Shown here: in pieces, positions 1,774-52,200 of the stretch
How the letters are laid out: each line of letters starts with the position of its first letter
Numbering within the stretch: the first letter of the stretch is position 1
Origin: Yuukianura sp. NJ FZ-2021
Lineage: Eukaryota
Length of the DNA: 64,000 nt
Reading direction: 5' to 3'
NCBI GenBank assembly: GCA_046563655.1
Contig: CM102285.1
Location: 6,572,001 to 6,636,000, forward strand
Translations under genes and position numbers: made by a program
The notes under the pieces: generated by a model
Told to the model about the DNA's origin: nothing
What the model saw: the letters and a program-made list of their open reading frames with translations, nothing else
Databases searched by the model: none

Positions 1774-2936
1774 ATGCTGGTAAGTCCTGTTCGCTTATAA
1801 TTTCATTCGTTCACTCGTACTGAAAGCATTACAAATAACTGTCGGACTTTCAGAATGTTTTCGATGACCCTATTCGTGACCCGGATTTTGACCTAGAAGG
1901 AGTCGCGGTCGAATCGGTAAGTTTTTTTGTCTCATTTTTTTTTCAATTTTAAATTAAACAGAAAATTTTGAAAATTTAGCCAAGTGATTATACTTTGCGC
2001 CCGGCTCCTGCGGAAGAGACGCCTGGTCCAAGTGGTCGGACAAACGAGTACTGGGCCCTTCTGAGACAACAACGCCACAAACTTGACAAGTATCACCTTC
2101 TCAACATTACCGCCGTGTTTGCCACCCGCCGGCACTACGAATGCGGGTATCGTGAAGAAGTAGACGAACAAAATGAAAAAAAAATGGAAAAACAACACGA
2201 CGAAGAGATGTTCGTAGGTTATGGGGACAAGGACGTCGACTACTATCCGTGAGTGATTAATTTAAAATTATTTTCAGTTTTCAGAATTCAATTTTGGCTT
2301 TCGTTTTCTGTAGATTCAGATGGATTAAAATTCCATCGGACATGCCACCGGAACTGCGAGCAAAGTTTAACATGCTACGTCGGAGAGAGTATGGAACAAC
2401 TCTGGCGCAATCGGCCGTTGAAGTGCCAGGGAAACAATTTCAATATATGCAACTTGGGTTCAAAAAGAGAATTGTGGTAATATAAACCATTTTTTTTTTT
2501 GGAAATCCTGATTTGAATTTTATGTTTTTTTTAGCCTCAATTCAGCAAAACTTACGTGTGCTCCTCTTGTCGCTGCTGCTTTGCAACTAAGGAATTATAC
2601 CGAACGCATCGTTGTTGTTTTACGCAAAGTGTAGCCATCCAAACGGATGCACAAGACGTGCTGGATTCTCAACCCCCACCTATTGACTACTCATCTCTGT
2701 TCTGCGAGGGATGTCGGATGTCGTTTAAGCGGAAATTTACGTTCAAGCGATATTGTGAAAACATACACCCCAGGCGGTCTAATCCCGCCAAAGAGTACAA
2801 GTTTCAATGCCGCTGTCGCGATTACCAAACTGACCGCAATGACAATTATCTCCGCCATCTCAGAAGATGTAAAGTAGTGTTGGGGGGTTCAGTGCCACAT
2901 TATACTTTACTAACTTCAATAAAATTTTGGAATTAA
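1774..2936 (+). CDS. Spliced five-exon gene encoding a 300-aa protein with three C-terminal C2H2/C2HC-like zinc fingers. Coding exons: 1774-1779, 1854-1916, 1980-2248, 2314-2476, 2535-2936
   Basis: The ATG lies in a CAAAATG context. Introns are 1780-1853 (GTAAGT...TTTCAG), 1917-1979 (GTAAGT...TTTAG), 2249-2313 (GTGAGT...TGTAG) and 2477-2534 (GTAATA...TTTAG), 58-74 bp each. Phases 0,0,2,0 join the exons into one open 903-nt frame that includes the track ORFs 1995, 2294 and 2556. Finger motifs: YVCSSCRCCFATKELYRTHRC, FCEGCRMSFKRKFTFKRYCENIH, FQCRCRDYQTDRNDNYLRHLRRC. Confidence 0.8.
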
Positions 2937-3045: not shown

Positions 3046-6000
3046 AGTATTTAGAAAGGTGGGTATTTAGAAAGGCAGTTTTTCTAGAATTTTAAACGGG
3101 GTTAAATTGCTCTGCAAATTCACAAAATGGCTGTATCTCGAGAAATATGGATTTCCGGTGAAATCTAATTACAAATTCGGATTCACCGACTTGAAATTGA
3201 TGTGAGTACACTTTCAAAGGTGGGTATTTAGAAAGGCAGTTTTTCTAGAATTTTGAAGGGGGTTAGATTGCTCTGCAAATTCACAAAATGGCTGTATCTC
3301 GAGAAATATGGATTGCCGGTGAAATCTAATTGCAAATTCGGATTCACCAACTTGAAATTGATGTGAGTACACTTTCAAAGGTGGACATTTAGACAGGTAG
3401 TTTTTCTAGAATTTTGTAAGGGGAAAAATTGCTTTGCAAATTCACAAAACGGCTGCATCTCGAGAAATATGGATTTCCGGTGAAATCTAATTGCAAATTC
3501 GGATTCACCGACTTGAAATTGATGTGAGTACACTTTCAAAGGTGGGTATTTAGAAAGGCAGTTTTTCTAGAATTTTGAAGGGGGAAAAATTGCTCTGCAA
3601 ATTCACAAAATGGCTGTATCTCGAGAAATATGGATTTCCGGTGAAATCTAATTGCAAATTCGGATTCACCGACTTGAAATTGATGTGAGTACACTTTCAA
3701 AGGTGGGTATTTAGAAAGGCAGTTTTTCTAGAATTTTGAAGGGGGTTAAATTGCTCTGCAAATTCGCAAAATGGCTGTATCTCGAGAAATATGGATTGCC
3801 GGTGAAATCTATTGCAAATTCGGATTCACCGACTTGAAATTGATGTGAGTACACTTTCAAAGGTGGGTATTTAGAAAGGTAGTTTTTCTATAATTTTGTA
3901 AGGGGAAAAATTGCTTTGCAAATTCACAAAACGGCTGCATCTCGAGAAATATGGATTTCCGGTGAAATCTAATTGCAAATTCGGATTCACCGACTTGAAA
4001 TTGATGTGAGTACACTTTCAAAGGTGGGTATTTAGAAAGGCAGTTTTTCTAGAATTTTGAAGGGGAAAAATTGCTCTGCAAATTCACAAAATGGCTGTAT
4101 CTCGAGAAATATGGATTTCCGGTGAAATCTAATTGCAAATTCGGATTCACCGACTTGAAATTGATGTGAGTACACTTTCAAAGGTGGGTATTTAGAAAGG
4201 CAGTTTTTCTAGAATTTTGAAGGGGGTTAAATTGCTCTGCAAATTCGCAAAATGGCTGTATCTCGAGAAATATGGATTGCCGGTGAAATCTATTGCAAAT
4301 TCGGATTCACCGACTTGAAATTGATGTGAGTACACTTTCAAAGGTGGGTATTTAGAAAGGTAGTTTTTCTATAATTTTGTAAGGGGAAAAATTGCTTTGC
4401 AAATTCACAAAATGGCTGTATCTCGAGAAATATGGATTTCCGGTGAAATCTAATTGCAAATTCGGATTCACCGACTTGAAATTGATGTGAGTACACTTTC
4501 AAAGGTGGGTATTTAGAAAGGCAGTTTTTCTAGAATTTTTAATGGGTTAAATTGCTCTGCAAATTCACAAAATGGCTGTATCTCGAGAAATATGGATTTC
4601 CGGTGAAATCTAATTGCAAATTCGGATTCGCCGACTTGAAATTGATGTGAGTACACTTTCAAAGGTGGACATTTAGACAGGTAGTTTTTCTAGAACTTTG
4701 TAACGGGAAAAATTGCTCTGCAAATTCACAAAATGGCTGTATCTCGAGAAATATGGATTGCCGGTGAAATCTATTGCAAATTCGGATTCACCGACTTGAA
4801 ATTGATGTGAGTACACTTTCAAAGGTGGGTATTTAGAAAGGCAGTTTTTCTAGAATTTTGAAGGGGTTTAGATTGCTCTGCAAATTCACAAAATGGCTGT
4901 ATCTCGAGAAATATGGATTGCCGGTGAAATCTAATTGCAAATTCGGATTCACCGACTTGAAATTGATGTGAGTACACTTTCAAAGGTGGGTATTTAGAAA
5001 GGCAGTTTTTCTACAATTTTGAAGGGGGTTAGATTGCTCTGCAAATTCACAAAATGGCTGTATCTCGAGAAATATGGATTGCCGGTGAAATCTAATTGCA
5101 AATTCGGATTCACCAACTTGAAATTGATGTGAGTACACTTTCAAAGGTGGACATTTAGACAGGTAGTTTTTCTAGAATTTTGTAAGGGGAAAAATTGCTT
5201 TGCAAATTCACAAAATGGCTGCATCTCGAGAAATATGGATTTCCGGTGAAATCTAATTGCAAATTCGGATTCACCGACTTGAAATTGATGTGAGTACACT
5301 TTCAAAGGTGGGTATTTAGAAAGGCAGTTTTTCTAGAATTTTGAAGGGGGAAAAATTGCTCTGCAAATTCACAAAATGGCTGTATCTCGAGAAATATGGA
5401 TTTCCGGTGAAATCTAATTGCAAATTCGGATTCACCGACTTGAAATTGATGTGAGTACACTTTCAAATGTGGGTATTTAGAAAGGCAGTTTTTCTAGAAT
5501 TTTGAAGGGGGTTAAATTGCTCTGCAAATTCACAAAATGGCTGTATCTCGAGAAATATGGATTGCCGGTGAAATCTATTGCAAATTCGGATTCACCGACT
5601 TGAAATTGATGTGAGTACACTTTCAAATGTGGGTATTTAGAAAGGTAGTTTTTCTATAATTTTGTAAGGGGAAAAATTGCTTTGCAAATTCACAAAATGG
5701 CTGTATCTCGAGAAATATGGATTTCCGGTGAAATCTAATTGCAAATTCGGATTCACCGACTTGAAATTGATGTGAGTACACTTTCAAAGGTGGGTATTTA
5801 GAAAGGCAGTTTTTCTAGAATTTTGAATTGGGTTAAATTGCTCTGCAAATTCACAAAATGGCTGTATCTCGAGAAATATGGATTTCCGGTGAAATCTAAT
5901 TGCAAATTCGGATTCACCGACTTGAAATTGATGTGAGTACACTTTCAAAGGTGGACATTTAGACAGGTAGTTTTTCTAGAATTTTGTAAGGGGAAAAATT

Positions 6001-8261
6001 GCTCTGCAAATTCACAAAATGGCTGTATCTCGAGAAATATGGATTGCCGGTGAAATCTATTGCAAATTCGGATTCACCGACTTGAAATTGATGTGAGTAC
6101 ACTTTCAAAGGTGGGTATTTAGAAAGGCAGTTTTTCTAGAATTTTGAAGGGGGTTAGATTGCTCTGCAAATTCACAAAATGGCTGTATCTCGAGAAATAT
6201 GGATTTCCGGTGAAATCTAATTACAAATTCGGATTCACCGACTTGAAATTGATGTGAGTACACTTTCAAAGGTGGGTATTTAGAAAGGCAGTTTTTCTAG
6301 AATTTTGAAGGGGGTTAGATTGCTCTGCAAATTCACAAAATGGCTGTATCTCGAGAAATATGGATTGCCGGTGAAATCTAATTGCAAATTCGGATTCACC
6401 AACTTGAAATTGATGTGAGTACACTTTCAAAGGTGGACATTTAGACAGGTAGTTTTTCTAGAATTTTGTAAGGGGAAAAATTGCTTTGCAAATTCACAAA
6501 ACGGCTGCATCTCGAGAAATATGGATTTCCGGTGAAATCTAATTGCAAATTCGGATTCACCGACTTGAAATTGATGTGAGTACACTTTCAAAGGTGGGTA
6601 TTTAGAAAGGCAGTTTTTCTAGAATTTTGAAGGGGGAAAAATTGCTCTGCAAATTCACAAAATGGCTGTATCTCGAGAAATATGGATTTCCGGTGAAATC
6701 TAATTGCAAATTCGGATTCACCGACTTGAAATTGATGTGAGTACACTTTCAAAGGAGGGTATTTAGAAAGGCAGTTTTTCTAGAATTTTGTAAGGGGAAA
6801 AATTGCTTTGCAAATTCACAAAATGGCTGTATCTCGAGAAATATGGATTTCCGGTGAAATCTAATTGCAAATTCGGATTCACCGACTTGAAATTGATGTG
6901 AGTACACTTTCAAAGGTGGGTATTTAGAAAGGCAGTTTTTCTAGAATTTTGAAGGGGGTTAAATTGCTCTGCAAATTCACAAAATGGCTGTATCTCGAGA
7001 AATATGGATTTCCGGTGAAATCTAATTGCAAATTCGGATTCGCCGACTTGAAATTGATGTGAGTACACTTTCAAAGGTGGACATTTAGACAGGTAGTTTT
7101 TCTAGAATTTTGTAAGGGGAAAAATTGCTCTGCAAATTCACAAAATGGCTGTATCTCGAGAAATATGGATTGCCGGTGAAATCTATTGCAAATTCGGATT
7201 CACCGACTTGAAATTGATGTGAGTACACTTTCAAAGGTGGGTATTTAGAAAGGCAGTTTTTCTAGAATTTTGAAGGGGGTTAGATTGCTCTGCAAATTCA
7301 CAAAATGGCTGTATCTCGAGAAATATGGATTTCCGGTGAAATCTAATTACAAATTCGGATTCACCGACTTGAAATTGATGTGAGTACACTTTCAAAGGTG
7401 GGTATTTAGAAAGGCAGTTTTTCTAGAATTTTGAAGGTGGTTAGATTGCTCTGCAAATTCACAAAATGGCTGTATCTCGAGAAATATGGATTGCCGGTGA
7501 AATCTAATTGCAAATTCGGATTCACCAACTTGAAATTGATGTGAGTACACTTTCAAAGGTGGACATTTAGACAGGTAGTTTTTCTAGAATTTTGTAAGGG
7601 GAAAAATTGCTTTGCAAATTCACAAAACGGCTGCATCTCGAGAAATATGGATTTCCGGTGAAATCTAATTGCAAATTCGGATTCACCGACTTGAAATTGA
7701 TGTGAGTACACTTTCAAAGGTGGGTATTTAGAAAGGCAGTTTTTCTAGAATTTTGTAAGGGGAAAAATTGCTCTGCAAATTCACAAAATGGCTGTATCTC
7801 GAGAAATATGGATTTCCGGTGAAATCTAATTGCAAATTCGGATTCACCGACTTGAAATTGATGTGAGTACACTTTCAAAGGTGGGTATTTAGAAAGGTAG
7901 TTTTTCTATAATTTTGTAAGGGGAAAAATTGCTTTGCAAATTCACAAAACGGCTGCATCTCGAGAAATATGGATTTCCGGTGAAATCTAATTGCAAATTC
8001 GGATTCACCGACTTGAAATTGATGTGAGTACACTTTCAAAGGTGGGTATTTAGAAAGGCAGTTTTTCTAGAATTTTGAAGGGGGAAAAATTGCTCTGCAA
8101 ATTCACAAAATGGCTGTATCTCGAGAAATATGGATTTCCGGTGAAATCTAATTGCAAATTCGGATTCACCGACTTGAAATTGATGTGAGTACACTTTCAA
8201 AGGTGGGTATTTAGAAAGGCAGTTTTTCTAGAATTTTGAAGGGGGTTAAATTGCTCTGCAA
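3046..8261. repeat. 160/161-bp satellite array, edge block (~32 monomers, variant-rich, higher-order repeat structure)
   Basis: Head-to-tail copies of GTACACTTTCAAAGGTGGGTATTTAGAAAGGCAGTTTTTCTAGAATTTTGAAGGGGTTAAATTGCTCTGCAAATTCACAAAATGGCTGTATCTCGAGAAATATGGATTGCCGGTGAAATCTAATTGCAAATTCGGATTCACCGACTTGAAATTGATGTGA with recurring diagnostic variants. Confidence 0.99.
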
Positions 8262-8810
8262 TGTGGGGAGGTATCCCCACAAACCCCTCTCAAAGCCTAT
8301 ATGGTTCCCTCGTCCTCCTCCGCTTCCCCCCAACAGCAGCAGCACAACAAGCCAATCGTCCCCTTAGTGCCAGAACACCAGTCCACTCAGCAGCCAATCA
8401 CAATCGCCGAGGATTGCATCAGCCAACTTCCCTGCAGCTCCTTCTGGCAGTTTCATCTTCTTCCTCCTCCACACGGTCCACAACAACAACTCACCAGAAG
8501 AGGACCTCGTCACTTCAGCTCCCAGTATCCGCCATCTTCCTTCTCCGTGTTCTGGACACGCTACTGCCCCACTTGACCCGGATTTGACCTCGACTGAACT
8601 CTGGACAAACCAGGGGATACCTGGTTGATCGTGCCAGGACCTCTCGACACTTCCACTACAAATTCATTGGCTATTCATACGTAAACGTATCTTTACTTTA
8701 TTAAAATAAACTAATTGATCATTGTAGCCGTGTGTCCCACCGTCCCACCATTTATTGCTGTCGAGTGGCCTTTGAGCCAGTCGTCGGGAAAGTCATCCGA
8801 CTTCCCCTCA
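8262..8810 (+). repeat. 5' LTR (549 bp)
   Basis: TGTGGGGAGG...CTTCCCCTCA, with imperfect terminal inverted repeat TG(T/A)GGGGA and AATAAA at 8705-8710. I found no differences from 13040-13588 by eye. Confidence 0.96.
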
Positions 8811-8812
8811 AG

Positions 8813-8848
8813 TGGGCGCTACAGCCGGGAATCGAAGCCCGTGACCTC
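8813..8848 (+). promoter_or_regulatory. Primer binding site (tRNA 3'-end complement, isoacceptor not assigned)
   Basis: TGG begins after a 2-nt spacer following the LTR. The reverse complement GAGGTCACGGGCTTCGATTCCCGGCTGTAGCGCCCA contains a T-loop (TTCGATT), a T-stem/acceptor-like strand and a terminal CCA. Confidence 0.75.
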
Positions 8849-10247
8849 ACTTGACCTCTACACAACCGAAGCGGAATCATACCAAAAGGAGCCATCGGCT
8901 CCACCAAAGGACCCACCTTGACCCCATCCTAATTTTTTTCATTTTCAGAATTTTTTTCATTTTTTCATCCTGTTTTTTTCATTTTTTTCTAAAATCTTTT
9001 TCGATTTTTTTCAGTTTTTTCGGGAGAAAGCGAGTTTGGAGCAGAAGCCACGCCGTAGCCAGAGCCGAAGCCACTCCACCCACGCTCCATCCACACCACA
9101 TCTTCAGCCGTAGAGCCGAGAGCCGAATTCCACGCTCCACACCCTTCCACGCTCCACATCACATCTCCACGTCATCATCTCCTTCGTCAGCCTCCAACCG
9201 TGAGCAAGTTGACCTCACGAGGCAAGGTCACATAGAGGTCACATCGTTCTTCCTTTTCTTTTTCTTTCGCGGTTTGTTTTTTAAGCAAGCCTGTTTCCCT
9301 TCCCCGAGCAACTTTTGTTAAAATACCCCGTCCCCCTGTCCGTTTTTTTCTAAAATTTAAAGAAGTTAGCGTTTTTTTCAAAATTAGGCGTTTTTCAAAA
9401 TAGCGCAGCGCCCCAGCTACCTAAAAGCAGCTCCCCTGAAACGTAGTCCCTTATCCCCATAGCTCTGGCCCCTTTTTCAAAAGTTTAAGCCCCCCCTGTC
9501 CCTTAAATTGAAAATTTTTGAAATTTTGGGTTGAAAATTTTTTGAAACATCCTAAACTTAAAACTTGGTTCCCCCTAACACCCCCCTGTCAAAATTTTTT
9601 TGAAATCCAAATAGTTTGAAATTTTCGCGCTTTTGCAAATTTATTTGCGAAAGTGACTAATTCCCAGAGTCGGCATATTTTTCCGATTTCCAATTCGTAG
9701 GTAACTACGACCACACGCAGACCCCACTTTTCCCCTGATTAGTCGGATTTTGCAGGCTTAAACTGGCTTAAATTGTTCCCAATCCCTAAAACCCGTTGCG
9801 TTAATGTTTCCAATTAGCTAATTTCAGTTTCCAGTCCCACTTTGCGAAATCAAAAGTTGTTTACTTGTCCCAAACCCCTGTCCAAAATTCTGAAAAGTTG
9901 AAAAACTTTGAAATTCCACAAACAGCTACTAGAAATAGTATGTTCAGTTGAAGTCTACCTAATCCTCGGACTTCACAGATTTTCCCGCCCATGCGAATTT
10001 CAATCGCACCAAATCCTACTGAAGTTACCCTGTAACCCGACGTCCAGGCTCTACGGTTTCCTGATCTGGTTTGGCTTGGCTGCTCTGTCACTACAGCTCG
10101 TTCTATTTTTGTTCACTGTTCTCTTTATTCTATGATTTTAGTTCTGTTTTGGTGGATTTTGGTTTCTTTTTGAAACCATAGCCCTAGACAGCAGCTCTTA
10201 CTTTCCCATTATTCTTTCTTGTAGTTTTTAGATAATTCAATCTGATT

Positions 10248-10706
10248 ATGTCTTCTAGTCCTTCATCTTCTAGCTCCTTGCAAAAGGATGTTACCCCCCG
10301 CAAGCGTTCCCCTCTCAACCGGAGAACGTTTGATGACCGTCCCATTTGCAATTATTGTAACCTGAGCGGACACGTGCGAAAGCATTGCCGTTTCTATTGG
10401 CAAGCTCAAGGAGTTAACCCCGAAGCTGCGGGATGTCGACCTGTAAATGGTCGTTCCCGTCAGTTCCCATCAGTGTTTACCGCTTCCCGGCCACATGTTA
10501 CCTCAACTCCCCTTGCGACGGGTCACACGGTTACTGTTCCACCTGTAACCCCCCCTGGGATTCCCCCCTCTGCACAGCCAGTCTCTCCCATAATCGACGA
10601 CCATTGGGGTCCGTTGATTTTATCCTCTCTGGATGAGATTAAACGTCTTCTTCAGTCCATGTCCCAATCCCAGCAGTCGCAGTTGGAAAACTCCAACGGC
10701 TGTTGA
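10248..10706 (+). CDS. gag: Mini-Gag / nucleocapsid-like protein (152 aa) with one CCHC zinc knuckle
   Basis: CNYCNLSGHVRKHC (C-X2-C-X4-H-X4-C) at 10347-10388, basic N-terminal part, Pro-rich linker, ends ...QLENSNGC* over a slippery site. An in-frame TAA at 10233 prevents upstream extension, so there is no capsid domain. Confidence 0.75.
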   Translation: MSSSPSSSSSLQKDVTPRKRSPLNRRTFDDRPICNYCNLSGHVRKHCRFYWQAQGVNPEAAGCRPVNGRSRQFPSVFTASRPHVTSTPLATGHTVTVPPVTPPGIPPSAQPVSPIIDDHWGPLILSSLDEIKRLLQSMSQSQQSQLENSNGC

Positions 10707-10734
10707 TGCAGGTGCGACAGCCTCAGGACCCTGT
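10685..10734 (+). promoter_or_regulatory. Predicted -1 programmed ribosomal frameshift signal
   Basis: G_GAA_AAC heptamer (10685-10691) in the correct register of ORF1, a 6-nt spacer, and stem GGCTGTTG (10698-10705) / CGACAGCC (10715-10722). A possible pseudoknot pairs loop GCAGG (10708-10712) with CCTGT (10730-10734). The -1 frame is open from the heptamer directly into the 481-aa ORF. Confidence 0.7.
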
Positions 10735-12148
10735 TGTAAACCCTGCCCGTTCCCGCGCTGACCTTGTCCCAAACTTTAACTCAATTCCCCGTGTGTCCAA
10801 TTCAAAGAAAAGTCGAGTGGTTTCTCGTAAATGCCGTAAAATTCCAATTTCCCCAGAAGAGTTCCTTAAGTCCGTCCAACTCTTTGACAAACGTTCCAAA
10901 CAGTGTTCAAACTTCGTCCCTGCCCCTAACTGTCCTTCCCCTTTGGTCGTTGGGAAAACAAAACCTCAACCTAAGCCGAGACATTCTCGGTTATGTTCCC
11001 ATGCCCCCACTGCTCCACCCCCAGCTCACTCAGACCAAGTCGTTCCAGCTCCCTCCGATCCAGAGTCTGGTCCGGTTCTCAATTGTGCTCTAGTTCCATG
11101 TGATACTAATGACCCCACCCCGATTTGCGACCCGAATGTCCCCATTGACGCCAAACAGAACTGCTCTACAGGTCCAACTGATCAAGATGGCCCCACTCAA
11201 CTTCTGAAACCGAATGGCACTTACGCTCCTGCTGTGATTGGCCCCTTTATGAAGAATGTATTGTTTGGCCCTATTGACCCAGAATCTGCGCATGGTCCTG
11301 ATGTACTGAATATGTTGTATGGCCCCACTGAGATGAACACGTTAACAGGCCCTATTGTCTTGAATTCGTTGAATGGCCCGACTGTCCCGATGATATTTAA
11401 TGGCCCGAATGTTGTGACTGAGGAAAATGGCCCCTCAGACTCAGATGCCGCAATTGGTTTTTCCAGTTGTGTTGACCCAATTGCCCCAAATAGCTCAACT
11501 GATCTCCCTGATTGTGTTCCGGTTCCAATTGGTCCAATTTCCCATGCTCTGAGTTTGTCATGTCCCCCCGTTGATCCCACCGTTAATGCCGTTTCCCTTG
11601 GAAGCATCCATTTCCAGCAAGAGAACCTTGTTTCTCCAGTTCCAGATCCGTCTAAAGCTCTAGACAAGTGTTCTAGTCAGCTTTCCACTTCCCCTAGCTG
11701 GTCCAAAATGCCAGTTCCCCCGAAACCTTGTTTCGATGTCGGAGTTGATCCCTACCAGTTTTACAACAGTTCAATTTTGTATCTTGACTCCAAATTTCCC
11801 AGTTCCCGTTATTCGGATCGCGGAGCTCTGCTTGTAGAGTTACTACACCCTAAATTTCGGCATCTTTTTCCTGTTTACGCAGAGACGGACGCAACAGTTT
11901 TGCGCCGTTTGGTCCTTCTCTCCCGATTCTTGCCAAAAATGCCCACGTACGAATCCTGGATAGCTATGATGACGAAGGAGAAATTACCATGTCCCCCTCC
12001 ACGTCCCGGATTCGACTTATCCTCCAGTTTTGATGTCAAGCCCAACGCTGCGAACAACGTTTTGGTGCGTTCGAAGTTCTCCCGAAGTTCCTCCCGGTCG
12101 TCGCGCAACTCTGGACACACTTCAACTACGTCAACGCTACTGTTTTGA
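10703..12148 (+). CDS. ORF2 of the LTR element: unknown Pro/Ser-rich protein in the pol position, probably expressed as a Gag-fusion; the 3' end may be frameshifted
   Basis: 481 open codons in the -1 frame relative to ORF1. No aspartic protease D(T/S)G, RT YxDD, RNase H or integrase motif is visible. It has 9-aa GP repeats and a globular-looking segment (~11730-12000). Confidence 0.65.
   Translation: MMQVRQPQDPVVNPARSRADLVPNFNSIPRVSNSKKSRVVSRKCRKIPISPEEFLKSVQLFDKRSKQCSNFVPAPNCPSPLVVGKTKPQPKPRHSRLCSHAPTAPPPAHSDQVVPAPSDPESGPVLNCALVPCDTNDPTPICDPNVPIDAKQNCSTGPTDQDGPTQLLKPNGTYAPAVIGPFMKNVLFGPIDPESAHGPDVLNMLYGPTEMNTLTGPIVLNSLNGPTVPMIFNGPNVVTEENGPSDSDAAIGFSSCVDPIAPNSSTDLPDCVPVPIGPISHALSLSCPPVDPTVNAVSLGSIHFQQENLVSPVPDPSKALDKCSSQLSTSPSWSKMPVPPKPCFDVGVDPYQFYNSSILYLDSKFPSSRYSDRGALLVELLHPKFRHLFPVYAETDATVLRRLVLLSRFLPKMPTYESWIAMMTKEKLPCPPPRPGFDLSSSFDVKPNAANNVLVRSKFSRSSSRSSRNSGHTSTTSTLLF
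11240..11434 (+). repeat. Degenerate 27-bp coding repeat (8 x Gly-Pro at 9-aa period)
   Basis: GGN-CCN codon pairs start at 11240, 11267, 11294, 11321, 11348, 11375, 11402 and 11429. Confidence 0.9.
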
Positions 12149-12160
12149 GGAGATTGAATT

Positions 12161-13354
12161 ATGTTGCTGCTCAGCTCTGTTGGACTTAGCAGAGTTCCCT
12201 GTCCCTCTGTTCCAGCTTCAAAACCAAAGCTGCAAGTCCAGAAACAAGTTCCAGCCAAGGTCGTCTCGCTTATGGATTTGCAGTTCCCTGATGGACCCCC
12301 AAAACCCCCCATAGCTGATCATTCTGGATCCAGTTCCCTCTCCGTTTTGGCTCGTGACATGTCAAAAGTCACTCTGAACCCTCAAACTCCCCAAAACCCT
12401 GGACTCAGCACTTCTTCACGATCGGCTGCACCAATTCGGATCCTCACTCGTCCAAATCGTCCAGCTCCGTACCCTAATCGTCCCCCATTGGCTCAAAATT
12501 CGGCTCCAGCATCATTAATTCGGCCTCTTCCTTCAATTTCCCGCCAAAATTTGGTCTCCGTTTCCTCTGCTCCCCAAGCTCCAGCATTTGCCCCAGCTTC
12601 TTCAGTTCTCTCAGCCTTATCGGTTCCCACAGCCACTTCCGGTTCCATCACTCTCCCCATTTCGGCAGCAGCGCTCAGCAACACGTCCAGTCACCGACGG
12701 TTCCCCCTGGACTCATTCCAATTCACGCCTACGTTCCAGCCAACGCAACGTCAGTCACTGTTACGTGGAATACCACCCAGGAATCGTCAAACGCTGCTCC
12801 TGATCCCCCAGCTCCTGCACAAGGACGTTTTCCCCCAGCTCCTGCACAAGGACGTTTGCCCCAAGCCCCAAATCGCCAGCAGCGTAGAGCTCGTTGGTGG
12901 GCAGAGAACTCTGCCAATTGTCCACCTCCACCGAAGAAAAATCACCCCAAGGATCTTCCAGCACCGTCCCAATAGCTCCCCGAATCGCTCCGGAGTTCCT
13001 CGGCTTGTCGCCGTGGCGGCTCCTCGGTCGTTGGGAATCTGTGGGGAGGTATCCCCACAAACCCCTCTCAAAGCCTATATGGTTCCCTCGTCCTCCTCCG
13101 CTTCCCCCCAACAGCAGCAGCACAACAAGCCAATCGTCCCCTTAGTGCCAGAACACCAGTCCACTCAGCAGCCAATCACAATCGCCGAGGATTGCATCAG
13201 CCAACTTCCCTGCAGCTCCTTCTGGCAGTTTCATCTTCTTCCTCCTCCACACGGTCCACAACAACAACTCACCAGAAGAGGACCTCGTCACTTCAGCTCC
13301 CAGTATCCGCCATCTTCCTTCTCCGTGTTCTGGACACGCTACTGCCCCACTTGA
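12161..13354 (+). CDS. ORF3 of the LTR element: low-complexity Pro/Ser/Ala-rich frame, likely a continuation of ORF2; the true C-terminus is uncertain
   Basis: Same frame as ORF2, separated by two TGA codons (12146, 12155). As called it runs ~105 codons into the 3' LTR; an alternative frame closes at TAG 12973-12975, before the LTR. Confidence 0.4.
   Translation: MLLLSSVGLSRVPCPSVPASKPKLQVQKQVPAKVVSLMDLQFPDGPPKPPIADHSGSSSLSVLARDMSKVTLNPQTPQNPGLSTSSRSAAPIRILTRPNRPAPYPNRPPLAQNSAPASLIRPLPSISRQNLVSVSSAPQAPAFAPASSVLSALSVPTATSGSITLPISAAALSNTSSHRRFPLDSFQFTPTFQPTQRQSLLRGIPPRNRQTLLLIPQLLHKDVFPQLLHKDVCPKPQIASSVELVGGQRTLPIVHLHRRKITPRIFQHRPNSSPNRSGVPRLVAVAAPRSLGICGEVSPQTPLKAYMVPSSSSASPQQQQHNKPIVPLVPEHQSTQQPITIAEDCISQLPCSSFWQFHLLPPPHGPQQQLTRRGPRHFSSQYPPSSFSVFWTRYCPT
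12804..12857 (+). repeat. Perfect 27-bp tandem duplication
   Basis: TCCCCCAGCTCCTGCACAAGGACGTTT x2 (12804-12830, 12831-12857); frame-preserving. Confidence 0.95.
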
Positions 13355-13588
13355 CCCGGATTTGACCTCGACTGAACTCTGGACAAACCAGGGGATACCT
13401 GGTTGATCGTGCCAGGACCTCTCGACACTTCCACTACAAATTCATTGGCTATTCATACGTAAACGTATCTTTACTTTATTAAAATAAACTAATTGATCAT
13501 TGTAGCCGTGTGTCCCACCGTCCCACCATTTATTGCTGTCGAGTGGCCTTTGAGCCAGTCGTCGGGAAAGTCATCCGACTTCCCCTCA
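13040..13588 (+). repeat. 3' LTR (549 bp)
   Basis: Direct repeat of 8262-8810, AATAAA at 13483-13488, followed by the TSD GCAA. Confidence 0.96.
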
Positions 13589-16500
13589 GCAAATTCGCAA
13601 AATGGCTGTATCTCGAGAAATATGGATTGCCGGTGAAATCTAATTGCAAATTCGGATTCACCGACTTGAAATTGATGTGAGTACACTTTCAAAGGTGGGT
13701 ATTTAGAAAGGTAGTTTTTCTAGAATTTTGTAAGGGGAAAAATTGCTTTGCAAATTCACAAAATGGCTGTATCTCGAGAAATATGGATTTCCGGTGAAAT
13801 CTAATTGCAAATTCGGATTCACCGACTTGAAATTGATGTGAGTACACTTTCAAAGGTGGGTATTTAGAAAGGCAGTTTTTCTAGAATTTTGAAGGGGTTA
13901 AATTGCTCTGCAAATTCACAAAATGGCTGTATCTCGAGAAATATGGATTTCCGGTGAAATCTAATTGCAAATTCGGATTCACCGACTTGAAATTGATGTG
14001 AGTACACTTTCAAAGGTGGACATTTAGAAAGGCAGTTTTTCTAGAATTTTGTAACGGGAAAAATTGCTCTGCAAATTCACAAAATGGCTGTATCTCGAGA
14101 AATATGGATTGCCGGTGAAATCTAATTGCAAATTCGGATTCACCGACTTGAAATTGATGTGAGTACACTTTCAAAGGTGGGTATTTAGAAAGGCAGTTTT
14201 TCTAGAATTTTGAAGGGGGTTAGATTGCTCTGCAAATTCACAAAATGGCTGTATCTCGAGAAATATGGATTGCCGGTGAAATCTAATTGCAAATTCGGAT
14301 TCACCGACTTGAAATTGATGTGAGTACACTTTCAAAGGTGGACATTTAGAAAGGTAGTTTTTCTAGAATTTTGTAAGGGGAAAAATTGCTCTGCAAATTC
14401 ACAAAATGGCTGTATCTCGAGAAATATGGATTTCCGGTGAAATCTAATTGCAAATTCGGATTCACCGACTTGAAATTGATGTGAGTACACTTTCAAAGGT
14501 GGGTATTTAGAAAGGCAGTTTTTCTAGAATTTTGAAGGGGAAAAATTGCTCTGCAAATTCACAAAATGGCTGTATCTCGAGAAATATGGATTTCCGGTGA
14601 AATCTAATTGCAAATTCGGATTCACCGACTTGAAATTGATGTGAGTACACTTTCAAAGGTGGGTATTTAGAAAGGCAGTTTTTCTAGAATTTTGAAGGGG
14701 GTTAAATTGCTCTGCAAATTCACAAAATGGCTGTATCTCGAGAAATATGGATTGCCGGTGAAATCTAATTGCAAATTCGGATTCACCGACTTGAAATTGA
14801 TGTGAGTACACTTTCAAAGGTGGGTATTTAGAAAGGTAGTTTTTCTAGAATTTTGTAAGGGGAAAAATTGCTTTGCAAATTCACAAAATGGCTGTATCTC
14901 GAGAAATATGGATTTCCGGTGAAATCTAATTGCAAATTCGGATTCACCGACTTGAAATTGATGTGAGTACACTTTCAAAGGTGGGTATTTAGAAAGGCAG
15001 TTTTTCTAGAATTTTGAAGGGGGTTAAATTGCTCTGCAAATTCACAAAATGGCTGTATCTCGAGAAATATGGATTGCCGGTGAAATCTAATTGCAAATTC
15101 GGATTCACCGACTTGAAATTGATGTGAGTACACTTTCAAAGGTGGGTATTTAGAAAGGCAGTTTTTCTAGAATTTTGTAAGGGGAAAAATTGCTCTGCAA
15201 ATTCACAAAATGGCTGTATCTCGAGAAATATGGATTTCCGGTGAAATCTAATTGCAAATTCGGATTCACCGACTTGAAATTGATGTGAGTACACTTTCAA
15301 AGGTGGGTATTTAGAAAGGCAGTTTTTCTAGAATTTTGAAGGGGTTAAATTGCTCTGCAAATTCACAAAATGGCTGTATCTCGAGAAATATGGATTTCCG
15401 GTGAAATCTAATTGCAAATTCGGATTCACCGACTTGAAATTGATGTGAGTACACTTTCAAAGGTGGGTATTTAGAAAGGCAGTTTTTCTAGAATTTTGAA
15501 GGGGTTAAATTGCTCTGCAAATTCACAAAATGGCTGTATCTCGAGAAATATGGATTTCCGGTGAAATCTAATTGCAAATTCGGATTCACCGACTTGAAAT
15601 TGATGTGAGTACACTTTCAAAGGTGGACATTTAGAAAGGTAGTTTTTCTAGAATTTTGTAAGGGGAAAAATTGCTCTGCAAATTCACAAAATGGCTGTAT
15701 CTCGAGAAATATGGATTGCCGGTGAAATCTAATTGCAAATTCGGATTCACCGACTTGAAATTGATGTGAGTACACTTTCAAAGGTGGGTATTTAGAAAGG
15801 CAGTTTTTCTAGAATTTTGAAGGGGGTTAGATTGCTCTGCAAATTCACAAAATGGCTGTATCTCGAGAAATATGGATTGCCGGTGAAATCTAATTGCAAA
15901 TTCGGATTCACCGACTTGAAATTGATGTGAGTACACTTTCAAAGGTGGACATTTAGAAAGGTAGTTTTTCTAGAATTTTGTAAGGGGAAAAATTGCTCTG
16001 CAAATTCACAAAATGGCTGTATCTCGAGAAATATGGATTTCCGGTGAAATCTAATTGCAAATTCGGATTCACCGACTTGAAATTGATGTGAGTACACTTT
16101 CAAAGGTGGGTATTTAGAAAGGCAGTTTTTCTAGAATTTTGAAGGGGAAAAATTGCTCTGCAAATTCACAAAATGGCTGTATCTCGAGAAATATGGATTT
16201 CCGGTGAAATCTAATTGCAAATTCGGATTCACCGACTTGAAATTGATGTGAGTACACTTTCAAAGGTGGGTATTTAGAAAGGCAGTTTTTCTAGAATTTT
16301 GAAGGGGGTTAAATTGCTCTGCAAATTCACAAAATGGCTGTATCTCGAGAAATATGGATTGCCGGTGAAATCTAATTGCAAATTCGGATTCACCGACTTG
16401 AAATTGATGTGAGTACACTTTCAAAGGTGGACATTTAGAAAGGCAGTTTTTCTAGAATTTTGTAAGGGGAAAAATTGCTCTGCAAATTCACAAAATGGCT

Positions 16501-47858: not shown

Positions 47859-49254
47859 GAGGAGACTGGGGGCAGTTGTAACAGATTTCGTATTTACGAG
47901 TTTTAAAATTACTTCCGCATTATAATTAAACCTTTAGTTTTCAGTAATAATAAGTTCACGGTGTTTTCTGGTAGATCCAAAAGTATGGAAATTTTTTAAT
48001 CACAATTTCATATTTTTTAACCGATTTTTCAAAAACACTACCCTTGTTACAATTGACCCCAGGCCCGGGGTCATTTGTAACACGACTGGGGTCAAATGTA
48101 ACAGCCCCCTAAACCCACAGCAATTCGTCATAATAACTATAAGATGACCATTATAAATACATCTAAGTATGTTTATGGTAAGCACATTACAAAAACTTAA
48201 GTTAATCGTTAAATAGTTAAGTTTTTCTCGCATTCTTGAACCTGCAGACGGGTGTGGAGTTCACCTGGCCAGTTTTAGTTTTAGTTTTTAACCTCCTGCA
48301 AGTTTCACTCCTTTTCTCGTAACGATCTTGACTGTCGTGCGCGATAGTGACTCCTGTTTCGTCCATATTGTAAATTGCGTGTGGTTCGAACTTGAATTTG
48401 TTCATAAGTTCTTCTAATTGAGCAAAAAAGTTGTTCACATTTGGCTTATTGAAGCTGACAGCTCTAGCAATGCTCGTTGTAACCTTCCAGTTGATAGGCC
48501 AGCATCCTAACTTCAGCTTGTGTCAACCCAATGAACATGTCAGCAGCCGTCTTCAGGTAAGTTTCCAAATGATCCTCTTGACTTCCCGTGAAAACACGAT
48601 TTGAGTGGCCGTAGCCATTTCCCGTTTGAGATTTAGCATTTGAATCCTTCAGTTTTTTCATAAATCGGGCAAACGTAACATGGCAAATTGAATATTCACA
48701 GGATACACTTCGGATACTTCTGCCTTCCGATACTTTCTGACTCGCCTCCATTAATGTAGACACCTCAACTTGTCCTCTGTTCGTTTTCCGAATACGTTTT
48801 CTGGGCATGTCTAAGAACCAAATCATGATCAAAGTTGTTACATATGACCCCATGAAATATGTTACAATTGACCCCAGTATGGAATTTTTCGAAAAAAAAT
48901 CTGCCAAAAAAATACAATGGCCTAAAGTTTAAAAGTAAATTGCTTACCTTACTTCTCGATGTGTTCACGAAATTGTCAACTGTTGAAATCTTCACGAAAA
49001 GCGGAAGTTGGCAAAATATTTGACTTTACATGGAAACAAAATAATTTTACTTTCCACCTTTTTTCGGTTGTGTTTTGGGAAAAAAATTTTAGTACGAAGA
49101 AGTTAGTTAAATTCTAAATTATTTGAATTGCCGCGAGAGCTGATCAGCTGTGACTAACTAATTATTGGTACAATAGATTTTTCATTCAATTAGAAGTAAG
49201 TAAGAATGGCACTGTTACAATTGACCCCGTGTTACAACTGCCCCCAACCTCCTC
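47859..49254 (-). mobile_element. Non-autonomous pogo/Tigger-like (Tc1/mariner superfamily) DNA transposon, 1396 bp
   Basis: TIRs GAGGAGACTGGGGGCAGTTGTAACA (47859-47883) and TGTTACAACTGCCCCCAACCTCCTC (49230-49254) match at 23/25. TA is duplicated at 47857-47858 and 49255-49256 within the satellite GAGTACAC site. Transposase remnants lie inside. Confidence 0.93.
48217..48808 (-). pseudogene. Deleted, frameshifted pogo/Tigger/CENP-B-family transposase
   Basis: MPRKRIRKT...GRSIRSVSCEYSICHVTFARF is psq/CENP-B-N-like HTH. VFTGSQEDHLETYL...GLTQAEVRMLAYQL is the start of a Tc5/CENP-B HTH. A second frame gives TSIARAVSFNKPNVNNFF...IYNMDETG (first catalytic Asp), and after a further shift KIVTRKGVK. 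The rest of the catalytic domain is absent. Confidence 0.88.
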
Positions 49255-52200
49255 TACACTTTCAAAGGTGGGTATTTAGAAAGGCAGTTTTTCTAGAATT
49301 TTGAAGGGGGTTAAATTGCTCTGCAAATTCGCAAAATGGCTGTATCTCGAGAAATATGGATTGCCGGTGAAATCTAATTGCAAATTCGGATTCACCGACT
49401 TGAAATTGATGTGAGTACACTTTCAAAGGTGGGTATTTAGAAAGGCAGTTTTTCTAGAATTTTGTAAGGGGAAAAATTGCTCTGCAAATTCACAAAATGG
49501 CTGTATCTCGAGAAATATGGATTTCCGGTGAAATCTAATTGCAAATTCGGATTCACCGACTTGAAATTGATGTGAGTACACTTTCAAAGGTGGGTATTTA
49601 GAAAGGCAGTTTTTCTAGAATTTTGAAGGGGGTTAAATTGCTCTGCAAATTCACAAAATGGCTGTATCTCGAGAAATATGGATTTCCGGTGAAATCTAAT
49701 TGCAAATTCGGATTCACCGACTTGAAATTGATGTGAGTACACTTTCAAAGGTGGACATTTAGAAAGGCAGTTTTTCTAGAATTTTGTAAGGGGAAAAATT
49801 GCTCTGCAAATTCACAAAATGGCTGTATCTCGAGAAATATGGATTTCCGGTGAAATCTAATTGCAAATTCGGATTCACCGACTTGAAATTGATGTGAGTA
49901 CACTTTCAAAGGTGGGTATTTAGAAAGGCAGTTTTTCTAGAATTTTGTAAGGGGAAAAATTGCTCTGCAAATTCACAAAATGGCTGTATCTCGAGAAATA
50001 TGGATTTCCGGTGAAATCTAATTGCAAATTCGGATTCACCGACTTGAAATTGATGTGAGTACACTTTCAAAGGTGGGTATTTAGAAAGGCAGTTTTTCTA
50101 GAATTTTGAAGGGGTTAAATTGCTCTGCAAATTCACAAAATGGCTGTATCTCGAGAAATATGGATTTCCGGTGAAATCTAATTGCAAATTCGGATTCACC
50201 GACTTGAAATTGATGTGAGTACACTTTCAAAGGTGGGTATTTAGAAAGGCAGTTTTTCTAGAATTTTGTAAGGGGAAAAATTGCTCTGCAAATTCACAAA
50301 ATGGCTGTATCTCGAGAAATATGGATTTCCGGTGAAATCTAATTGCAAATTCGGATTCACCGACTTGAAATTGATGTGAGTACACTTTCAAAGGTGGGTA
50401 TTTAGAAAGGCAGTTTTTCTAGAATTTTGTAAGGGGAAAAATTGCTCTGCAAATTCACAAAATGGCTGTATCTCGAGAAATATGGATTTCCGGTGAAATC
50501 TAATTGCAAATTCGGATTCACCGACTTGAAATTGATGTGAGTACACTTTCAAAGGTGGGTATTTAGAAAGGCAGTTTTTCTAGAATTTTGAAAGGGGTTA
50601 AATTGCTCTGCAAATTCACAAAATGGCTGTATCTCGAGAAATATGGATTTCCGGTGAAATCTAATTGCAAATTCGGATTCACCGACTTGAAATTGATGTG
50701 AGTACACTTTCAAAGGTGGGTATTTAGAAAGGCAGTTTTTCTAGAATTTTGAAGGGGTTAAATTGCTCTGCAAATTCACAAAATGGCTGTATCTCGAGAA
50801 ATATGGATTTCCGGTGAAATCTAATTGCAAATTCGGATTCACCGACTTGAAATTGATGTGAGTACACTTTCAAAGGTGGGTATTTAGAAAGGCAGTTTTT
50901 CTAGAATTTTGAAAGGGGTTAAATTGCTCTGCAAATTCACAAAATGGCTGTATCTCGAGAAATATGGATTGCCGGTGAAATCTAATTGCAAATTCGGATT
51001 CACCGACTTGAAATTGATGTGAGTACACTTTCAAAGGTGGACATTTAGAAAGGCAGTTTTTCTAGAATTTTGTAAGGGGAAAAATTGCTCTGCAAATTCA
51101 CAAAATGGCTGTATCTCGAGAAATATGGATTTCCGGTGAAATCTAATTGCAAATTCGGATTCACCGACTTGAAATTGATGTGAGTACACTTTCAAAGGTG
51201 GGTATTTAGAAAGGCAGTTTTTCTAGAATTTTGAAGGGGTTAAATTGCTCTGCAAATTCACAAAATGGCTGTATCTCGAGAAATATGGATTTCCGGTGAA
51301 ATCTAATTGCAAATTCGGATTCACCGACTTGAAATTGATGTGAGTACACTTTCAAAGGTGGGTATTTAGAAAGGCAGTTTTTCTAGAATTTTGAAGGGGG
51401 TTAAATTGCTCTGCAAATTCACAAAATGGCTGTATCTCGAGAAATATGGATTTCCGGTGAAATCTAATTGCAAATTCGGATTCACCGACTTGAAATTGAT
51501 GTGAGTACACTTTCAAAGGTGGGTATTTAGAAAGGCAGTTTTTCTAGAATTTTGAAGGGGGTTAAATTGCTCTGCAAATTCACAAAATGGCTGTATCTCG
51601 AGAAATATGGATTGCCGGTGAAATCTAATTGCAAATTCGGATTCACCGACTTGAAATTGATGTGAGTACACTTTCAAAGGTGGGTATTTAGAAAGGCAGT
51701 TTTTCTAGAATTTTGAAGTGGGTTAAATTGCTCTGCAAATTCACAAAATGGCTGTATCTCGAGAAATATGGATTGCCGGTGAAATCTAATTGCAAATTCG
51801 GATTCACCGACTTGAAATTGATGTGAGTACACTTTCAAAGGTGGGTATTTAGAAAGGCAGTTTTTCTAGAATTTTGAAGGGGTTAAATTGCTCTGCAAAT
51901 TCACAAAATGGCTGTATCTCGAGAAATATGGATTGCCGGTGAAATCTAATTGCAAATTCGGATTCACCGACTTGAAATTGATGTGAGTACACTTTCAAAG
52001 GTGGGTATTTAGAAAGGCAGTTTTTCTAGAATTTTGAAAGGGGTTAAATTGCTCTGCAAATTCACAAAATGGCTGTATCTCGAGAAATATGGATTGCCGG
52101 TGAAATCTAATTGCAAATTCGGATTCACCGACTTGAAATTGATGTGAGTACACTTTCAAAGGTGGGTATTTAGAAAGGCAGTTTTTCTAGAATTTTGAAG

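Follow-up and report, generated by a model that had tools for sequence, protein, structure and literature searches.

A probably trans-mobilised LTR retrotransposon without pol that codes for a zinc-knuckle protein and two orphan proteins

LTR elements that are non-autonomous tend to be classed as non-coding (TRIM, LARD) or as gag-only (TR-GAG, BHIKHARI). A stretch of 64,000 nucleotides from Yuukianura sp. NJ FZ-2021 (the window, to whose + strand all features and coordinates given here refer) contains an element of 5,327 bp whose family was recently mobile, yet specifies no more than one knuckle protein and a pair of orphans. This raises the question of what kind of element it is, how its proteins are made and what they may do for it.

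The element is bounded by two LTRs of 549 bp (8262-8810 and 13040-13588) that show 0 mismatches to each other and end in TG..CA, in full TGTGG...CCTCA. The 5' LTR contains TATATG (8298), CCAAT (8352 and 8394) and AATAAA (8705), motifs of putative function. A GCAA target site duplication is found on both flanks (8258-8261 and 13589-13592), which agrees with the preliminary description of intact LTRs and duplication. The host site is a satellite array with a monomer of 160/161 bp. The satellite consensus is unbroken at the insertion site (...CTCTGCAAATTC...), empty-site contigs continue from 8261 directly into satellite, and the monomer spacing over the insert is 5492, that is 5327 + 4 + 161. 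A literature search with a satellite 18-mer matched no papers. Since the LTRs are identical and the insertion lies in a homogeneous satellite array, the family was mobile until very recently.

The primer binding site, also described as intact, has a candidate. A PBS-like 24-mer beginning with TGG lies 2 nt past the 5' LTR (8813-8836) and is complementary to a tRNA 3' end of the T-loop/acceptor type, but it is one base longer than a canonical tRNA 3' end would make it, and no matching tRNA gene was present among five matches of a 20-mer from this site in metagenome contigs. Rfam returned nothing at the gathering threshold and four rows at E up to 1, all at chance level. No purine-rich PPT was found in the 40 nt upstream of the 3' LTR, where the sole candidate plus-strand primer site is TGGGAATC (13032-13039), which abuts the LTR and is not purine-rich; variant contigs have ...GGGAAT(C) directly before the LTR.

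The element contains three frames with a coding signature, namely ORF1 with its CCHC knuckle and two orphans, ORF2 (in the -1 register) and ORF3. They are preceded by a non-coding, ATG-poor leader that measures 1,437 nt (8811-10247), close to the 1.4 kb first reported. Over 8400-10247, four ATG are observed against 13.7+-3.2 expected, a number as low in 0 of 1000 shuffles, and each of them starts a uORF of just 3-14 codons. Codon phase is absent from the leader (base-by-phase chi-square p=0.89). Ribosomes could therefore scan through this nearly AUG-free leader to the start of ORF1, and its scarcity of AUG suggests that ORF1 translation has been kept up.

ORF1 (10248-10706) codes for a basic protein of 152 aa (pI 9.65). 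As described earlier, it has a single CCHC knuckle of the form C-x2-C-x4-H-x4-C (CNYCNLSGHVRKHC, 10347-10388), located near the N-terminus and flanked by basic residues. No second motif of this form turns up when all six frames of the 64 kb are translated, and when the residues of ORF1 are shuffled, 9 of 100000 shuffles contain one. The length of the frame is not exceptional (matched in 25 of 1000 shuffles) and its codon phase, with the same G1/C2/T3 pattern as ORF2, is weak (p=0.11). Pfam reported no zf-CCHC in ORF1 at E up to 1, the best match in a PDB sequence search had an E of 0.25 and a nucleocapsid chain (2ihx_A) an E of 0.54, and word-seeded searches at near and longer lengths found no homologues. 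From its knuckle, ORF1 looks like a nucleocapsid-type protein. The parallel claim that it contains no capsid holds at the sequence level only, Pfam showing no Gag or capsid family.

ORF2 (10706-12148) comprises 480 aa from its first ATG and 501 aa from stop to stop, counted from 10643. Its N-terminal part is basic, eight GPx7 repeats of 9 aa each follow (11240-11455), and the C-terminal segment at about 11693-12031 is poor in proline. None of 1000 dinucleotide-preserving shuffles matches the length of 501 aa, and the codon-phase signal is strong (base-by-phase chi-square p=8e-9). Over 10643-13039, frame 2 contains 2 stops in 799 codons, whereas the other + frames contain 24 and 37. The claim that ORF2 is coding and in the -1 register is thus well supported, and the register is kept in other copies. 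A PTAP in ORF2 was rejected as a meaningful motif because it arises in 421 of 5000 shuffles, and an apparent likeness of the C-terminal segment to a gag N-terminal motif was dropped for want of Pfam support.

Downstream, two in-frame TGA codons (12146 and 12155, within 12146-12157) separate ORF2 from ORF3 (12161-12975). Proline and serine together make up 27-29% of both frames, so the Pro/Ser-rich character proposed for about 2.3 kb of coding sequence is retained, but this sequence is not one frame because the two TGA codons split it. Folding of the RNA around the junction of ORF2 and ORF3 gave no signal (z -0.22). The ORF3 region is wholly open in 3 of 1000 shuffles, with codon-phase p values of 9e-5 and 3e-4 in the base-by-phase chi-square. 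Its coding phase follows frame 2 to about 12685 and then frame 1 to the stop at 12973-12975, while frame 2 of the present copy stays open to 13354, within the LTR. Two + frames are open together over 12686-12975. ORF3 is thus out of register in the present copy from about 12685, near which a one-base length difference is found in most contigs.

Other copies form a diverged multi-copy family in contigs of two organisms from two studies, and they share the internal structure by keeping the ORF1/ORF2 arrangement. Among the contig sets, X1, X3 and X4 belong to one sample, which is possibly the source of the window itself. Over 4,838 bases, 310 variable places were counted in X1 and 286 in X2, with many deletion variants. 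The ORF1/ORF2 junction is covered with 0 gaps by contigs of X1 (10256-10781) and X2 (10156-10756), and the ORF2/ORF3 junction likewise in X1, X2, X3 and X4; both TGA codons are the same in an X1 contig (11562-12288) and an X4 contig (11912-12287). Diverged contigs of the ORF3 region have 5-23 gaps.

The variants themselves were read from the 40 of 565 substitutions and 12 of 144 indels that were listed. Among these, the larger length variants in the ORFs (243, 93 and 102 nt) are all multiples of 3, two contigs differ by 3 nt, also a multiple of 3, and one ORF3 variant has 75 nt replaced by 77. None of the 30 ORF substitutions listed creates a stop. Synonymous changes account for 7 of the 18 listed in ORF2 (p=0.13) and 1 of the 5 in ORF1, and a 38-nt patch of ORF2 concentrates 6 non-synonymous changes among those listed. 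The C-terminal part of ORF2 shows 4 synonymous changes against 1 non-synonymous among those listed (binomial p=0.015, n=5), which points to constraint there. Selection on the ORFs thus appears weak overall. The copies seen over ORF1-ORF2 are diverged by 3% or less, and their intact frames could merely reflect youth. Older, more diverged relatives have the leader and the 3' region in common with it; among the contigs listed, likeness to these relatives seems to end at about 10196 and, from the same contigs, to resume near 12296-12333. The ORF1-ORF2 module (about 10197-12295) looks specific to the present subfamily.

How ORF2 is expressed is a question of its own. In Ty3/gypsy elements and in retroviruses, gag and pol are often linked by a -1 frameshift. 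The present layout is alike in that a long ORF in the -1 frame comes after the knuckle ORF and overlaps it briefly (10643-10708), but unlike in that it shows neither a canonical heptamer nor a stable structure and in that the downstream ORF is not pol. No canonical X_XXY_YYZ slippery heptamer is present in the 61-nt overlap 10643-10703, the nearest to it being GGAAAAC (10685-10691), and shuffled sequences fold as stably as the downstream RNA in a pseudoknot-blind tool (MFE -26.5 vs mean -26.0, z -0.16). The -1 frameshift cassette of the preliminary description was hence not recovered, and the fusion of the nucleocapsid-like protein to ORF2 by programmed frameshifting finds no support in sequence or structure.

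Instead, the stop codon of ORF1 overlaps the first ATG of ORF2 in TGATG (10704-10708), which offers a possible alternative route to ORF2. Stop-start coupling at UGAUG in cellular mRNAs and at UAAUG in the retrotransposon SART1 is described in PMC5972666, and the known cases require helper RNA elements, either TURBS or a downstream structure. The overlapping stop and start are alike here. On the other hand, the sole TGGGA, a TURBS-type candidate, occurs at 10556, 148 nt upstream of TGATG, where it is compatible with chance, and no significant fold was obtained. Termination-reinitiation at the UGAUG overlap could well produce ORF2 and would be a tentative first choice; an ORF1-ORF2 fusion by an inefficient non-canonical -1 slip is possible but doubtful, and another route, spliced or by internal initiation, would be slightly more doubtful still.

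Searches for enzymes gave a consistent picture. PR, RT, RH and IN as well as Gag and capsid families were absent from ORF1 and the whole ORF2 in Pfam at E up to 1, and from the C-terminal part of ORF2 and ORF3 at E up to 10. The motifs D[ST]G[AS], [YFL]xDD and HHCC were absent in every + frame, in a search that consisted of these three PR/RT/IN patterns and included no RNase H pattern. When ORF2 was searched exhaustively with phmmer, 1.84 billion representatives yielded 3 matches (E 1.4e-7 to 2e-5), which are tandem-repeat proteins aligned on the GP repeats and no true relatives. A word-seeded search found no ORF2 homologue of near length, ORF2 was not found in IMG/VR viral contigs, and NCBIfam gave no match. 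In the PDB sequence search the best E for ORF2 was 0.5, with no match for its C-terminal part or for ORF3. Moreover, the three ORFs are mutually non-paralogous and resemble nothing else in the window. ORF1, ORF2 and ORF3 are thus without relatives detectable by these searches. The reported lack of PR, RT, RH and IN is confirmed by Pfam and by the exhaustive HMMER search of ORF2, and for PR, RT and IN by the motif search as well; nor does ORF2 correspond to any known segment of gypsy pol, env or ORF3. An element without enzymes of its own must borrow the machinery of a helper, so the present one, lacking pol, is unable to move alone.

Among known systems, TR-GAG elements are presented in PMC4350172 as under 4 kb, with one ORF similar to GAG capsid domains of the UBN2 type, towards whose end (residue 275) the zinc finger lies. 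They share with the present element the LTRs, a PBS (a candidate one here), the absence of PR/RT/RH/IN, the possession of an ORF, a copy number of at least 2 and a presumed mobilisation in trans. They differ from it in that it measures 5,327 bp and has three ORFs, shows no detectable likeness to a capsid, and bears its knuckle in a separate ORF of 152 aa, close to the N-terminus. PMC12067270 portrays zebrafish BHIKHARI Bik-1/Bik-2 and chicken ENS-1 as non-autonomous LTR/ERV elements with gag and without pol or env, of very recent transposition and with no known complementing partner. Like them, the present family is non-autonomous, lacks pol and transposed very recently; those have a retroviral Gag that can be recognised as such and is predicted to fold as one, whereas no Gag or capsid signal is seen here, the comparison being one of sequence alone.

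LARD and TRIM are internally non-coding, TRIM being very short overall, and BARE-2 has no working gag and keeps pol, according to PMC4350172 and PMC13570524. All three share the LTR/PBS anatomy (with a candidate PBS here) and the dependence on a helper's enzymes, and at 5.3 kb the present length falls in the LARD range. Unlike LARD and TRIM, this element has coding frames, ORF2 and ORF3 with a strong coding signature, and unlike BARE-2 it is without pol. Since coding LTR elements without pol are already described (TR-GAG, PMC4350172; Bik-1/Bik-2, PMC12067270), it is a variant rather than a new class, and is best read as one of the gag-only kind (TR-GAG, BHIKHARI) in which no capsid can be recognised.

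Taken together, the element is probably a young member of an LTR retrotransposon family that is non-autonomous, codes for proteins and is mobilised in trans. The LTR would drive the genomic RNA, on which scanning ribosomes would reach the ORF1 start through the almost AUG-free leader. The basic knuckle protein would bind the element's own RNA, and ORF1 and ORF2 would replace Gag in carrying it into particles of an autonomous relative, whose RT and integrase would copy and insert it, giving the 4-bp duplication. The roles first proposed for the proteins, in packaging, silencing or targeting, would be putative. If the proteins are used, retroelements that live as parasites are able to retain or gain protein functions beyond that of a recognisable capsid, and the family would be a tractable case for the minimal protein set that admits an RNA to a helper's particles. 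If ORF2 folds like a capsid, the element would be an extreme, split and rearranged Gag, and a warning that sequence-based TE classifiers overlook such gag genes.

A bolder and rather unlikely reading is that the lineage swapped gag-pol for a set of non-homologous genes (for a knuckle protein that is nucleocapsid only, for an orphan of 480 aa whose eight GPx7 repeats are accompanied by a C-terminal domain under constraint, and for a third protein rich in Pro/Ser) and hitch-hikes on an unrelated or distant helper. Were this true, it would be a retrotransposon 'satellite' with its own structural or accessory proteins, beyond a simple gag-only deletion derivative.

It is also doubtful, though the rival that survives best, that the element is a decaying deletion or recombination derivative of an autonomous LTR element whose proteins do nothing for it. 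ORF1 would be the nucleocapsid remnant of gag, ORF3 and possibly ORF2 would occupy what was once the pol frame, for instance as the poorly conserved integrase tail, and the frames would be open solely through the youth of the family. ORF2 and ORF3 indeed share one frame that is -1 to ORF1, a relation that many elements show between pol and gag, and this reading accommodates the lost register of ORF3 along with its gapped variants, the weak or absent purifying selection in ORF1 and a patch of ORF2, the low divergence over ORF1-ORF2, and a leader and 3' region common to more diverged relatives. However, PR, RT, RH and IN are the best conserved retroelement domains, and no trace of them is left in 480-501 ORF2 codons. 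The strong phase of ORF2, the listed length variants that stay in frame, an AUG-poor leader suggesting maintained ORF1 translation and the same arrangement in a second organism also speak against mere decay.

Less probable still, the segment 10197-12295, approximately, would be a foreign transcript (of host, mobile element or virus) recombined into an LTR element, its genes serving themselves or the host and not transposition. The breaks in likeness to relatives do seem to bracket ORF1 and ORF2 with short flanks, and the proteins resemble no retroelement protein. Nevertheless, the absence of an ORF2 homologue among the 1.84 billion representatives makes a conserved host gene less likely, the layout of a knuckle ORF with an overlapping -1 ORF behind it resembles that of retroelements, the module and its flanks do not differ in base composition or strand skew, and the boundaries rest on the contigs listed. 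Finally, it is very improbable that the frames are open because a C/T-rich, G-poor + strand makes stop codons rare: a GC skew of -0.21 to -0.23 throughout the element, the doubly open stretch in ORF3 and ORFs averaging 160 aa in the shuffled 2.8-kb region would fit, but the unmatched length of ORF2, the many stops in its two alternative frames and its phase, set against none in the similarly composed leader, already contradict this for ORF2.

The element also contains repeats outside the GPx7 array, with four CCCCTGTC plus A/T-rich modules in the leader (9333, 9493, 9583 and 9875) and a 27-bp repeat in ORF3 (12804-12866).

The pol-less LTR retroelement at 8262-13588 (5,327 bp) is best supported as an LTR retrotransposon that is non-autonomous, retains protein-coding capacity and was mobile very recently, and it therefore depends on reverse transcriptase and integrase supplied in trans. 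Its LTRs (8262-8810 and 13040-13588) are 549 bp each, show no mismatch, start with TG and end with CA. GCAA flanks the element on either side, the satellite consensus (...CTCTGCAAATTC...) is unbroken at the insertion site, more than 100 contigs pass from 8261 directly into satellite, and the monomer spacing across the insert is accounted for exactly (5492 = 5327 + 4 + 161). The flanks, the uninterrupted consensus and the exact spacing together show that the element inserted cleanly and duplicated 4 bp of its target.

A PBS-like 24-mer begins 2 bases past the 5' LTR. It starts with TGG, its complement resembles a tRNA 3' end with T-loop and acceptor, and it is 1 base longer than a canonical ...NCCA end predicts. 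None of the five places found with 20 bases of the PBS in metagenome contigs was a tRNA gene, and the window contains no tRNA gene. Upstream of the 3' LTR no purine-rich tract was found, the final eight bases being TGGGAATC, and variant contigs finish with ...GGGAAT(C) ahead of this LTR. The LTR contains TATATG at 8298, two CCAAT at 8352 and 8394 and one AATAAA at 8705, motifs of putative function. In addition, the U3 side of the LTR (8262-8525) has similar contigs in the run from organism B, one of the two coded sources of the sequencing runs, at a word depth far above that of the rest of the element, and the loose ends of these contigs run off into unrelated stretches. An abundant LTR-related repeat may exist in this organism, which is a lead only, contig depth being unreliable.

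The lack of pol that was first noted by eye held up: none of ORF1, ORF2, the C-terminal part of ORF2 and ORF3 matched a relevant Pfam family, no NCBIfam family was found, and the D[ST]G[AS], [YFL]xDD and HHCC patterns were absent from all plus-strand frames of the internal region. Word-seeded searches of 5.8 billion clusters returned nothing for ORF2 among proteins of near length or for ORF1 among those of near and longer length. Exhaustive phmmer with ORF2 against 1.84 billion representatives gave three matches (E 1.4e-7 to 2e-5), all of them tandem-repeat proteins aligned on the GP repeats of ORF2, and since the matches are confined to these repeats they are not homology. PDB sequence searches and a viral-contig scan revealed no relatives, and the three ORFs showed no relationship to one another. 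By these sequence searches, ORF2 is not a segment of pol, env or ORF3 from any known gypsy element.

ORF1 (10248-10706) encodes a basic, Ser/Pro-rich protein of 152 aa with a pI of 9.65 that carries CNYCNLSGHVRKHC. No other C-x2-C-x4-H-x4-C appears when the 64 kb are translated in all six frames, and shuffling the residues of ORF1 produced the motif 9 times in 100000. Pfam reported no zf-CCHC for ORF1 at E up to 1 and a nucleocapsid chain of the PDB reached an E of only 0.54, so that the knuckle is a motif-level call. In its own frame ORF1 displays the same codon-phase pattern as ORF2, weakly (p=0.11). ORF1 probably binds RNA in the manner of a nucleocapsid.

ORF2 lies in the -1 frame, is open from 10643, has its first ATG at 10706 and stops at 12146-12148; it measures 501 aa between stops and 480 aa when counted from the ATG. 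Of the 799 codons in its frame over 10643-13039, 2 are stops, compared with 24 and 37 stops in the remaining plus-strand frames, and its codon phase is strong, with G at position 1, C at position 2 and T at position 3 (p=8e-9). The predicted protein begins with a basic N-terminal part, continues with GPx7 repeats and ends in a C-terminal segment poor in proline; the repeats (11240-11455) form eight consecutive nine-residue units such as GPFMKNVLF, GPIDPESAH and GPDVLNMLY. Judged from this coding signature, ORF2 is a real gene.

How ORF2 would be reached was also considered. The overlap of ORF1 and ORF2 that permits a -1 shift measures 61 nt (10643-10703) and holds no canonical X_XXY_YYZ heptamer, the closest being GGAAAAC, of which only the A-site half is good. 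The RNA fold of the 121 nt from 10680 is no better than that of shuffles (z -0.16). The frameshift cassette proposed in the preliminary description, modelled on gag-pol, could thus not be upheld. At 10704-10708, TGATG overlaps the ORF1 stop with the first ATG of ORF2, and such stop-start coupling is known in eukaryotic mRNAs and in the retrotransposon SART1 (PMC5972666). However, the cases documented in that source require extra RNA elements, none of which was found in the element; the nearest TGGGA, its sole occurrence, lies 148 nt upstream. Leaky scanning is unlikely because seven ATGs intervene between the starts of ORF1 and ORF2. Among the candidate routes, reinitiation is placed somewhat above a non-canonical slip.

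Beyond ORF2, two in-frame TGA codons at 12146 and 12155 terminate it, and ORF3 starts in the same frame with an ATG at 12161. The codon phase of ORF3 follows the ORF2 frame until about 12685 (p=9e-5) and then the neighbouring frame, which closes at the stop codon 12973-12975 (p=3e-4). Most contigs placed there differ from the window by 1 base in length near 12685, and this difference together with the phase switch indicates that ORF3 is out of register in the window copy. That it seems to continue as far as 13354, within the LTR, is fortuitous: the sequence there is C-rich and leaves two frames open. The roughly 2.3 kb initially read as coding sequence is therefore two genes, the second broken in this copy.

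The leader (8811-10247) is of a different kind, with no codon phase (p=0.89). The stretch 8400-10247 contains 4 ATGs, against 13.7+-3.2 in dinucleotide shuffles, none of 1000 shuffles being as low; 8400-9803 has none at all, and each of the 4 begins a uORF of just 3-14 codons. It looks like a scanned 5' UTR under selection. Four CCCCTGTC modules occur in it (9333, 9493, 9583 and 9875), each followed by A/T-rich sequence of the TTGAAA type; the octamer is found seven times in the window for 0.88 expected, with four of the seven inside the leader. These modules could serve in protein binding or packaging.

The element was found in five DNA runs from two studies, no RNA run being among those listed, and contigs of four runs were placed on 8202-13039. 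Three of these (X1, X3 and X4) represent a single sample of organism A, which may be where the window itself comes from, and X2 represents organism B. X1 shows 310 variable places and X2 shows 286, and deletion variants are numerous; the element thus belongs to a family whose copies have diverged and which is present in two organisms. Contigs over the ORF1/ORF2 junction are gap-free (X1, 10256-10781, 5 differences; X2, 10156-10756, 7 differences), hence the -1 arrangement is a family feature and not a mutation of the window copy. In the same way, contigs over the ORF2/ORF3 junction have no gap in all four runs, and both TGA stops are kept in the X1 junction contig, for which all 11 differences are listed, and in an identical X4 contig.

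Selection was assessed on a sample of the variants, 40 rows out of 565 for substitutions and 12 out of 144 for indels. Among the listed ORF length variants, those of 243, 93 and 102 nt and the 3-nt differences of two contigs are in frame, the exceptions being the single base near 12685 in ORF3 and a variant with 77 nt in place of 75; listed skips in the LTR and leader measure 57, 67, 136, 173, 436, 88, 96, 86, 81, 113 and 1. None of the 30 substitutions listed in the ORFs creates a stop. Synonymous changes amount to 7 of the 18 listed in ORF2 (p=0.13), 4 of 5 in its C-terminal part (p=0.015) and 1 of 5 in ORF1, and all six changes listed in a 38-nt patch of ORF2 are non-synonymous. Selection on the ORFs is only hinted at. 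A rival, less likely reading is a derivative in decay, with frames that have stayed open solely through youth and an ORF3 region that could be what remains of the end of a former pol frame; the broken ORF3 sits with this reading, and the in-frame length variants sit against it.

Divergence over 10256-12288 is at most 3% in all listed contigs, and listed contigs that are 7-13% diverged with gaps fall in the leader and from about 12296 onward only. Two X2 contigs depart from the element at 10196 into other sequence. The ORF1-ORF2 module (about 10197-12295) may be subfamily-specific, with flanks common to older relatives. Capture of a foreign module is a further, unlikely rival account. A composition artefact was rejected as the source of ORF2's open frame, whose 501 aa were matched by none of 1000 dinucleotide-preserving shuffles.

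In the favoured reading, that of a coding non-autonomous retrotransposon, ORF1 and ORF2 would serve, with modest confidence, as the element's substitute for Gag. Plant TR-GAG elements also lack pol and carry their own gag, in less than 4 kb and with a single capsid-domain-like ORF (PMC4350172); the present element differs in size, in its number of ORFs and, at the sequence level, in capsid similarity. It departs from LARD and TRIM elements by its coding interior. Zebrafish Bik-1/Bik-2 and chicken ENS-1 have gag without pol or env, were recently active and have no known partner (PMC12067270), and a 2026 survey describes non-autonomous categories as blurring and partners as often untraceable (PMC13570524). 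No element with the same ORF set was found in the literature searched, whose coverage was partial, so that absence from print is not implied. The element is best called a variant of the coding non-autonomous LTR kind, of which gag-only relatives are already known. It is a real and recent element with an odd gene complement; the observation in the preliminary description is partly confirmed and its interpretation partly supported. The proposed frameshift fails, and ORF3 is broken in the window copy.

Nearly the whole window is a single tandem array of alternating 160- and 161-bp monomers (3055-8261, 13589-47858 and 49255-64000). Among 338 monomer anchors in the window, spacing is 160 in 171 cases and 161 in 163, and just two spacings are irregular, one at the LTR element and one at a 1.4-kb TIR element (47859-49253). 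GC content is 45-50% in the LTR insert versus 36-37% in the array, and GC skew -0.21 to -0.23 versus +0.25. TRF detected a 321-bp (dimer) period with 98% matches to the right of the LTR element and a 482-bp (trimer) period with 94-96% to its left, which places the element near a switch in higher-order repeat structure.

The TIR element at 47859-49253 is a DNA transposon with a TA duplication and TIRs of 28 nt that are 93% complementary, a TIR-like 18-mer being also repeated internally. Its minus strand holds broken ORFs, of which one has the N-terminus MPRKRIRK... and another contains ...NMDETG...; they look pogo/Tc1-mariner-like but gave no significant Pfam match. Finally, an exon-like ORF of 133 aa at 2535-2936 (+) has C2H2/C2HC-type finger spacing (Pfam zf-C2H2, E 0.36 only), a T-rich tract ending in AG upstream and AATAAA near 2920 downstream. 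The satellite begins just beyond it, at 3055, and the ORF may represent the terminal exon of a host gene at the border of the array.
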